64,000 nucleotides of DNA, from NCBI GenBank assembly GCA_037189585.1, contig JBBCJA010000018.1, forward strand, positions 887 through 64,886, read 5' to 3'. Positions 20,657 through 20,941 of the stretch are shown here, piece by piece (position 1 is the first letter of the stretch; every line of letters begins with the position of its first letter). The DNA is from Selenomonadaceae bacterium. GTDB lineage: Bacteria > Vulcanimicrobiota > Xenobia > Xenobiales > JADMJV01. A program made the translations under genes and the position numbers. The notes under the pieces were generated by a model. It did not search any database. It was not told the origin of the DNA and saw only the letters and a program-made list of their open reading frames with translations.

Positions 20657-20685
20657 TTGACAGTTCTTCTCCAAGTCCGTACATT
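20657..20685 (+). promoter_or_regulatory. Near-consensus sigma70-like promoter
   Basis: TTGACA (20657-20662), a 17-nt spacer, then TACATT (20680-20685). No protein gene with an RBS follows. Confidence 0.55.
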
Positions 20686-20690
20686 GGACA

Positions 20691-20941
20691 ACGTAGAGTA
20701 ATACCCAGTAGGAAAGTGTAGTCCACCGAAAACGGTTTCACGCCATGTTGAACGCAACGTCACATAATCCGATGCCAAGCCAAGGCTTTCGCTCCGTCCT
20801 TACCGACGGCGGCGTGTCGTCGCTCGGCCACGGCAGGGGACGGAAACTCGGAGGTCGCGCTACCGGCTAGTTCAAAGCAGATAATGCTAAGACGAGCGGT
20901 AGCGCTCATCTCCGAAACAACGTCGGAGGTGGGCGTTTTTC
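20691..20941 (+). ncRNA. Candidate structured RNA of about 250 nt, unknown class, bounded by promoter and terminator
   Basis: It starts about 6-10 nt after the -10 box. Internal helices read by eye are tccgtcc (20793-20799)/ggacgga (20838-20844) and gcgctaccg (20857-20865)/cggtagcgc (20897-20905). It ends in a 13-bp terminator stem plus T5. Confidence 0.45.
20903..20941 (+). terminator. Rho-independent terminator of the candidate RNA
   Basis: cgctcatctccga (20903-20915) pairs with tcggaggtgggcg (20923-20935), including 2 G.U pairs, around a 7-nt loop, followed by TTTTT. Confidence 0.7.

Follow-up and report, generated by a model that had tools for sequence, protein, structure and literature searches.

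The closest described counterparts of the element treated here are leader-peptide attenuators on the one hand and bacterial Ro60/Y RNA loci on the other. The classical leader-peptide transcription attenuators are the enterobacterial trp, his, thr and leu leaders, and the E. coli pyrBI leader, with its 44-codon open reading frame (ORF), senses how closely translation follows transcription. Leader peptides that respond to ribosome stalling precede antibiotic-resistance genes in B. subtilis, as in yxjB/tlrB (PMC6851288) and vmlR (PMC9226507), where attenuation proceeds through overlapping RNA structures together with polymerase pausing (PMC6851288, PMC9226507). In the Salmonella RNA repair operon, rsr-yrlBA-rtcBA, the σ54 activator RtcR senses tRNA fragments and no leader is known (PMC7790460). 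Bacterial Y RNAs are recognised by a length of 80–130 nucleotides (nt), a long stem formed from the 5' and 3' ends, the motif GNCGAA(N0-1)G near the 5' end and a position less than 4 kb from a Ro60 gene on the same strand (PMC4201824). Here we describe a promoter-to-terminator unit of about 250 nt with its promoter at position 20657 of a 64,000-nt stretch of contig JBBCJA010000018.1, the whole of which is called the window below. From its sequence and that of its homologs we read this unit, with a probability of roughly 55%, as the 5' leader of a Ro60-like RNA quality-control operon that acts as a ribosome-dependent transcription attenuator, the ~250-nt RNA being its terminated product. It would be an attenuator of a new family, one that matches no curated family.

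Like the classical attenuators, the unit has a short leader ORF, an intrinsic terminator before the operon and an overlapping antiterminator with its 5' arm inside or adjacent to the ORF; the terminator would be favoured once a ribosome sits at the stop codon, and a hairpin within the leader could be a pause site. Unlike them, it has neither a run of cognate-amino-acid codons nor a Shine-Dalgarno (SD) sequence, its ORF is long (41 codons) and of fixed length, the operon behind it is not biosynthetic, and no Rfam leader family matches it. The model proposed here also predicts read-through without any translation, because no conserved "1:2" pairing was found. The pyrBI leader offers a closer parallel in some respects, as it too has a long ORF (~40 codons) whose amino acid sequence is unimportant and an output set by the position of the ribosome relative to the polymerase at an intrinsic terminator. 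In pyrBI, however, the ORF crosses the terminator and a close ribosome prevents termination, whereas in the unit the ORF ends short of the terminator, and the predicted effect of the ribosome is to promote termination. An invariant element at the 5' end further sets the unit apart from known attenuators and from the resistance-gene leaders. In yxjB/tlrB and vmlR, as proposed here, a stalled or failed ribosome in a short leader ORF changes the RNA fold and switches the downstream gene on, but those ORFs are short (9 codons in yxjB), are preceded by an SD and contain a defined stalling motif (RYR), with a known drug inducer and a gene for a resistance factor, and the unit shows no recognisable stalling motif. 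In its design it matches the classical leader-peptide attenuators and the stalling-responsive resistance leaders (PMC6851288, PMC9226507). Finally, the Sinorhizobium rnTrpL/peTrpL system resembles the unit in being an attenuator with a terminated leader that is a discrete small RNA and with a real leader peptide, so a leader can look like a stand-alone small RNA gene; it differs in being a trp attenuator with Trp codons, for which trans functions have been shown in Sinorhizobium (PMC7298713).

Relatives were reached via the neighbouring 487-amino-acid (aa) protein, via its contigs and by one scan of species-representative genomes. This gave 11 distinct sequences (the window, L001, L002, L005, L006, L020, L022, L023, L025, L027 and L029), the homologs coming from metagenome contigs or from one Vulcanimicrobiota metagenome-assembled genome (MAG; L006). 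L029 stands for a clade further removed, whose version of the neighbouring protein is only 65% identical. The unit occurs once per locus in all 11, and the predicted promoter-to-terminator RNA measures 246–262 nt across them, which bears out an earlier note on this DNA that had proposed a genuine transcription unit of about 250 nt. Its parts in the window are as follows.

20657..20685, + strand: promoter P1, with −35 hexamer TTGACA (20657–20662), a 17-nt spacer and −10 hexamer TACATT (20680–20685); promoter scan, 10/12
20691..20717, + strand: 5' block ACGTAGAGTAATACCCAGTAGGAAAGT at the predicted transcript start; alignment
20721..20727, + strand: GTCCACC, complementary to GGTGGGC (20928–20934) in the terminator 3' arm; per-sequence minimum-free-energy (MFE) folds
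20745..20870, + strand: leader ORF of 41 codons, MLNATSHNPMPSQGFRSVLTDGGVSSLGHGRGRKLGGRATG and stop, without an SD; ORF list and alignment
20794..20809, + strand: central hairpin in the ORF, CCGTC-cttacc-GACGG; positional hairpin test
20848..20866, + strand: segment B, TCGGAGGTCGCGCTACCGG, antiterminator 5' arm, made of the last eight ORF codons, with the stop codon (20868–20870) directly after it
20896..20915, + strand: segment C, GCGGTAGCGCTCATCTCCGA, the shared arm, which pairs with B (antiterminator) or with D (terminator)
20901..20947, + strand: intrinsic terminator, stem 20901–20937 (15 pairs, 8 of them G-C) and T-run 20938–20947 (TTTCTTTCTC); terminator scan
20923..20937, + strand: segment D, terminator 3' arm

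The terminator is conserved in all 11 sequences: GGAGGTGGGCGTTTTT is invariant in the ten of the main clade, and L029 retains an GCGCTCACC/GGTGAGCG stem and the T-run. The heptamer CGGAGGT is present twice, at about 20849 and about 20925, and either copy can pair with CATCTCCG (20908–20915). When the RNA is folded as a nascent chain, before D is made, B pairs with C in every sequence (−23 to −41 kcal/mol). This hairpin contains the 9-bp helix of the earlier note (20857–20865 GCGCTACCG/20897–20905 CGGTAGCGC), which is indeed perfect and conserved as part of the longer structure; the overlap of that helix with the terminator, put at 3 nt, is far larger, since the entire terminator 5' arm can pair upstream. 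The MFE of the full 3' domain corresponds to the antiterminator in five sequences and to the terminator in six, and once B is masked the terminator (C:D) forms in 11 of 11. Standard pairs occupy 90.5% of the cells of B:C and 93.7% of those of C:D, against 35–46% in slid controls. The spacing of these parts is also kept, with 18 nt from GGAGG to the stop codon in all 11 sequences, 105 nt from AUG to GGAGG in nine of them and 62–70 nt from the stop codon to the U-tract. By toeprint distance, the leading edge of a ribosome is ~15–16 nt past the first base of its P site (PMC6851288); one that has arrived at the stop codon would therefore cover B and extend to ~20881, and C, which begins at 20896, would stay free. 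On geometry alone, the position of the ribosome on the ORF could decide between terminator and antiterminator.

A second line of evidence comes from the ORF. That it spans 20745–20870 and lacks a visible SD was already clear from the window; the further claim that the promoter drives no ORF and that the unit is non-coding does not hold up across homologs. The ORF is open in 11 of 11 from the same AUG and stops at the same structural position, with TAG in all except L006 (TAA) and L029 (TGA). It measures 41 codons in nine sequences, among them the most divergent pair (L027 and L029), and 43 and 45 codons in the other two. Among 312 start columns and strands over the same span, this frame and position is the only one open in all nine main-clade sequences tested, and the frame is open in 11/11 as compared with 5/22 for the other two frames. 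A conserved ORF on the minus strand can be rejected, as no minus-strand position is open in all nine (maximum 7/9). Gap runs inside the ORF are multiples of three in six of six cases (3 or 9 nt), versus none of 14 in the rest of the unit, a difference with a Fisher exact probability of ~3e-5 that was counted on a codon-unaware nucleotide alignment. This indel pattern is strong sequence evidence for selection on the frame.

The encoded peptide tells a different story. The ORF has a dN/dS of ~0.85 (range 0.38–1.27 among collinear relatives), which is near-neutral, and mean pairwise differences at codon positions 1, 2 and 3 are 0.47, 0.38 and 0.41, showing no 3-base periodicity. The N- and C-terminal motifs of the peptide are conserved and its middle is near-neutral; these ends overlap conserved RNA helices, and constraint on the RNA accounts for their conservation. 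On these comparisons the reading frame is under selection and the peptide is not. A kept frame with a drifting product is expected of a regulatory leader ORF, unlike a functional small protein or a purely non-coding RNA. An ordinary small-protein gene is rejected, given that purifying selection on amino acids is not seen in either the dN/dS values or the codon-position differences. The earlier note had held that clear coding conservation would turn its RNA into a small-protein gene; the frame is conserved, amino acid conservation was not seen, and that prediction is thus only half borne out.

The 5' end of the unit is conserved as well. In the 64-kb window three promoter matches score 10/12 on the two strands, and only P1 combines a perfect −35 hexamer with a 17-nt spacer, so to call it the best match in the window was roughly right, although it is tied in score with two others. 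Across the alignment of all 11 sequences neither hexamer varies, and the 17-nt spacer is constant in length and variable in sequence, which is the pattern expected of a functional promoter. When the coding strand of the operon was scanned in the window, L029, L005 and L006, P1 also proved to be the only σ70-like site conserved in position. Transcription would start at ~20692, as deduced from the position of the −10 hexamer. The first five sequences aligned share the 27-nt 5' block ACGTAGAGTAATACCCAGTAGGAAAGT without any change, nine main-clade sequences share it almost unchanged, and ACGTARAGTAWTAC of it is retained in the divergent L029; a mini-hairpin, GUAG-AGUA-AUAC, is possible inside it at 20693–20704. 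The heptamer GTCCACC that follows is present in nine of 11 homologs and missing from L027 and L029, and is therefore not universal. In the folding models it could pair with GGTGGGC, a possible 5'-3' closing helix of the terminated RNA.

A 10-mer within the 5' block, GAGTAATACC, has exactly two copies in the 64 kb (20696 and 21178), both on the + strand and both in this locus. The first copy belongs to the 5' end of the unit; the second, partly conserved in homologs, is ~30 nt upstream of a tRNA-like module (module A, below). At the core of the 10-mer is the 7-bp palindrome GTAWTAC, with A or T in the middle depending on the homolog. No promoter with proper spacing was found before the second copy, by eye or by promoter scan.

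The unit is always upstream of, and on the same strand as, the genes for a 66-aa protein, a Ro60-like protein and an E1-like enzyme, and is thus the first element of their operon; conservation extends beyond the unit to the entire intergenic region. This linkage survives changes of the upstream neighbour, which is an amidohydrolase gene in L005, lacks DUF1287 in L023 and L027 and gives way to unrelated genes in L029. A near-consensus promoter stands ~100 nt ahead of the 66-aa gene in Thermogemmatispora, without a unit between the two; the place that the unit takes is therefore that of a leader. The description of the unit as "stand-alone" is therefore hard to maintain: its terminator forms half of a conserved two-state switch, it always heads the same operon, and no other conserved σ70-like promoter precedes the downstream genes. 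A profile hidden Markov model found the unit absent from same-operon loci of Armatimonadota, Chloroflexota and Ignavibacteriota/Kapaibacteria and from L028. Searches with an exact 21-mer of the invariant 5' block found nothing in metagenome or viral collections, nor did BLAST of the unit against phages and plasmids.

In the proposed mechanism, RNA polymerase would start at P1 (~20692), copy the invariant 5' element and then the 41-codon leader ORF, and segment B would pair with segment C in a long hairpin that sequesters the terminator 5' arm. If B is free of ribosomes as the polymerase reaches 20923–20947, the hairpin would persist and no terminator would form. The polymerase would then enter the tRNA-like and Y-like RNAs and the genes for the 66-aa, Ro60-like, ~276-aa and E1-like proteins. 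A ribosome at the stop codon (20868–20870) would instead cover B and free C, so that C would pair with D, transcription would stop at the T-run and the ~250-nt RNA would be released. The operon would thus be kept off by efficient translation of the leader and be turned on when that translation fails or stalls. We infer each of these elements, namely transcription of the unit, translation of its ORF, read-through, the direction of the switch and its signal. As to the signal, our guess is general translation or tRNA stress, or a control of leader initiation exerted via the invariant 5' element.

A more specific version of the attenuator, which we hold to be doubtful, is a translation-surveillance switch. 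The leader ORF would have no amino-acid specificity and would report whether ribosomes complete a 41-codon test message; a failure, for example from damaged tRNAs or rRNA or from a shortage of ribosomes, would turn on the Ro60-like/Y-RNA-like/E1 operon, and the switch would replace an RtcR-type sensor in this lineage. A bolder form of the same idea would make the terminated 250-nt RNA a ligand or decoy of the Ro60-like protein as well. If the attenuator reading is true, the leader would offer a sequence-defined, mutable handle on the switching of a Ro60-type operon in a lineage that has received little study (its nearest named genome being a Vulcanimicrobiota MAG), and control of such an operon would be tied to the state of translation and not to a protein sensor. 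It would also serve as a caution that an apparent orphan small RNA gene, complete from promoter to terminator, can be the "off" product of an attenuator.

Several observations weigh against the attenuator. No GGAG, GAGG or AGGA stands upstream of the ORF, unlike most genes of the window (23 of 32 long ORFs have one), and no regulatory-codon run or arrest motif is conserved across the homologs, so that no specific signal can be named. The absence of stop codons from the GC-rich middle of the ORF has a probability of ~0.045, which is weak when taken alone. The columns of the switch helices are near-invariant and covariation in them is scarce, leaving conservation and energetics as the support for the two folds, and the structure that was tested had been read from the window sequence. 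The distance from the terminator to the first protein gene, 274–1007 nt, is long and RNA-rich, and other RNAs in this gap could have unrecognised promoters, the scan having covered σ70-like sites only. Lastly, the comparison comprises only 11 sequences from one lineage.

The central part of the ORF carries a further conserved structure. The earlier note had listed a 7-bp helix, TCCGTCC at 20793–20799 with GGACGGA at 20838–20844, which is perfect in the window; judged by eye, without a formal count, its 5' strand is not kept in homologs. What is conserved in its place is the local hairpin 20794–20798/20805–20809. Among the 11 homologs, 10 have a hairpin of 4 bp or more whose centre falls +54.5 to +61.5 from the AUG, with seven different stem sequences, as compared with ~0.36 per sequence in shuffles. 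This positional test replaced one for any hairpin in a 35-nt zone, which was uninformative since shuffles give 55–65%. The central hairpin is a candidate pause or folding element.

Three other explanations of the unit have to be weighed against the attenuator. We consider it unlikely that the unit is a stand-alone dual-function or coding small RNA, constitutively transcribed and terminated, whose 41-aa peptide and/or RNA would have a trans function (with the Ro60-like protein, for instance) next to an operon with its own promoter. Such a gene would account for the strong promoter and the efficient-looking terminator of the unit, for the selected frame with its conserved N- and C-terminal peptide motifs, and for the end-to-end pairing that is possible in nine of 11 homologs. 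The Sinorhizobium attenuator RNAs and leader peptides do act in trans (peTrpL, PMC7298713), a precedent that is compatible with the attenuator as well. The near-neutral amino acids argue against it, the conserved peptide ends being explained by RNA helices, and it offers no role for the conserved alternative pairing of the terminator arm. Nor does it sit well with a strict operon linkage in which no conserved downstream promoter was found and no copy of the unit stands elsewhere in any locus.

Less likely still is a cis-acting leader that would be switched by an RNA-binding factor (autoregulation by the Ro60-like protein, a tRNA-like RNA or a small ligand) at the 5' block or the central hairpin. 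The near-invariant 27 nt outside the ORF, the compensating central hairpin and the conserved terminator/antiterminator pair would all be at home in such a leader, and the recurrence of GAGTAATACC once in the locus and nowhere else in 64 kb is as expected of a shared binding site. This explanation nevertheless leaves unaccounted for the confinement of frame-preserving indels to the span from AUG to stop and the position of the stop codon exactly 18 nt into segment B in 11 of 11 sequences; furthermore, no Rfam riboswitch or T-box model matches, and no conserved multi-helix aptamer with covariation can be defined. The proposal of the earlier note, a purely non-coding stand-alone RNA of a new class with an incidental ORF, possibly a Ro60 partner, now appears improbable. 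It agrees with the lack of an SD, of amino acid selection and of any Rfam match, with the stable fold and with the position within 1–2 kb of the Ro60-like gene on the same strand. It is disfavoured by the retained ORF of fixed length with 6/6 versus 0/14 frame-preserving indels, by a terminator that competes with a conserved alternative helix, and, as regards a Ro60 partner, by a size twice that of Y RNAs and the lack of GNCGAA(N)G at a homologous position.

As to the class of the RNA, the earlier note was right to call it structured and unrecognised. Fold stability relative to shuffles gives z = −4.05 on the + strand (−3.22 on the − strand), and Rfam returns no family at the gathering threshold and only noise at E<=10. 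The same note had set aside RNase P, signal recognition particle RNA, tmRNA and 6S by eye; Rfam, which has no matching model, and ARAGORN, which makes no tmRNA call, agree. For a riboswitch or T-box, no Rfam model matches at E<=10 beyond noise; a T-box was rejected also because no conserved UGGN bulge opposite the ACCA of the tRNA-like module could be seen by eye. RNAalifold yields no well-supported aptamer, although one compensating hairpin and the invariant 5' block are present. In 11 of 11 loci the unit and the Ro60-like gene share a strand and the unit precedes the gene by 770–1829 nt, within the 4 kb that is characteristic of Y RNAs. Its identity as a Y RNA was nonetheless rejected, as its 246–262 nt are twice the usual size of 80–130 nt (PMC4201824). 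The motif GNCGAA(N0-1)G is absent near the 5' end in nine of 11 homologs and stands at non-homologous positions in the other two, and the pairing of the two ends, though possible in nine, is missing from L027 and L029. A gapped terminator pattern had a single match in the metagenome collection, L026, which was rejected as a homolog because it is a look-alike terminator after an unrelated amidase gene. There, positions 11686–11717 carry the same 28 specified terminator bases (GCGCTCAYCTCC...GGAGGTGGGCGTTTTT) directly behind the amidase gene, with no further similarity to the unit.

The operon behind the leader may matter more than the leader itself, and its combination of parts may be the more novel: a Ro60 fold missed by Pfam stands together with tRNA-like RNAs, a 66-aa protein ending in YG, a ~276-aa protein and an E1-like enzyme. 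Downstream of the terminator the window holds the following.

20990..21170, + strand: helix-rich conserved blocks, which would be reached only by read-through; alignment, the profile finding them in all main-clade loci
21215..21348, + strand: tRNA-like module A; alignment, fold z = −3.46
21383..21583, + strand: gene for the 66-aa protein, with a strong SD (AAGGAG) and an invariant C-terminal ...RPEAVYG
21600..21745, + strand: YrlA-like Y RNA candidate, its tRNA-like core (21634–21703) at the tip of a ~20-bp flank stem; fold and Rfam
21878..23341, + strand: divergent Ro60/Rsr-like protein of 487 aa, with a helical ring domain and a vWA domain; AlphaFold2 (AF2) and Foldseek
23429..24256, + strand: conserved ~276-aa protein, no family or PDB match (sequence profile)
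24261..24896, + strand: ThiF-family E1-like adenylyltransferase of 211 aa; Pfam ThiF

The conserved blocks contain the nested complements AGCTTAG/CTAAGCT, CACCCC/GGGGGTG and CCTCCGGGC/GCCCGGAGG and a 13-bp hairpin at 21125–21157; no ORF and no Rfam match was found in them. Module A consists of an 8-bp acceptor-like stem (TGAAGCGG/CCGCTTCA), a D-like arm, a central arm of ~80 nt, a T-arm-like ACGGG-TGCAAAT-CCCGT and an ACCA end encoded in the genome. L002, L005, L023 and others keep the module, a deletion has removed it from L001 and L020, and it has no Rfam match. The 66-aa protein is modelled by AF2 with a predicted local distance difference test score (pLDDT) of 88 and a ββ-α-ββ topology, from which an unconfirmed ubiquitin-like fold can be only inferred; neither a significant fold match nor a sequence-profile match was found in the PDB.

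The element at 21600–21745 has a layout like that of the YrlA-type bacterial Y RNAs, which makes it a candidate member of that group. Its core scores 33.8 bits with the Rfam tRNA model (32.7–52.6 bits in six homologous loci), is not called a tRNA by ARAGORN and is flanked by a 9-bp inverted repeat (GAAAAGCTT/AAGCTTTTC). Homologs of the element adjoin the Ro60-like gene in L001, L002, L005, L010, L011 and L013, and the element has no more than an approximate version (CUCGAACG) of the published 5' motif, GNCGAA(N)G.

The gene for the Ro60-like protein is listed as coding for a 512-aa vWA protein; its true start is probably 21878, which gives 487 aa. Pfam detects no TROVE domain in the product, and source annotations name it only "hypothetical" or "vWA domain-containing". 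For its AF2 model (pLDDT 78), the 11 best Foldseek matches in the PDB are all Ro60/Rsr, headed by D. radiodurans Rsr (2nvo, E=1.5e-10, TM score 0.62), and a sequence profile against the PDB weakly matches TROVE proteins (E=0.028). By its predicted fold, the 487-aa protein is a Ro60/Rsr homolog. The family is large: of 8000 candidates scored, 2680 matched. Identity across phyla, many cyanobacteria included, is ~60%.

The core of the operon spans at least five phyla (window 21383–24896; L007–L017, L028 and L029). It comprises a 66–73-aa protein ending in ...RPEA(V/L)YG, long RNA-rich spacers, the Ro60-like protein, a protein of ~276–360 aa and a short ThiF/E1-like enzyme, and in Kapaibacteria/Ignavibacteria loci (L009 and L010) an RtcB ligase is adjacent. 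In the searchable literature, no paper was found that combines a Ro60-like protein, a ThiF/E1 enzyme and a small YG-terminated protein. The locus is a divergent relative of the Ro60/Y RNA/RtcB RNA-repair loci (PMC4201824, PMC7790460). With Salmonella rsr-yrlBA-rtcBA and the bacterial Ro60/Y RNA loci it shares a Ro60-fold protein, YrlA-type tRNA-like RNAs on the same strand within 4 kb and, in its distant relatives, an adjacent RtcB (PMC7790460, PMC4201824). It differs from the Salmonella operon in having a Ro60-like family that is not recognised by Pfam TROVE, in having the 66-aa, ~276-aa and ThiF/E1 proteins in place of RtcA and RtcR, and in that the ~250-nt unit is not itself a Y RNA.

On the other side of the unit, positions 18274–20608 of the window encode an FHA-domain adenylate/guanylate cyclase, a DUF6787 protein and a DUF1287/CHAP-like protein. 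These genes are syntenic with the unit in most close relatives and are replaced or interrupted in L005, L023, L027 and L029. Just past the stop codon of the DUF1287 gene (20608), a perfect palindrome, GTCAACCCGGGGTTGAC, followed by TTTTAT, was seen by eye at 20617–20640, although it was not listed by the terminator scan; it is probably the terminator of the DUF1287 gene and would separate that gene from P1.

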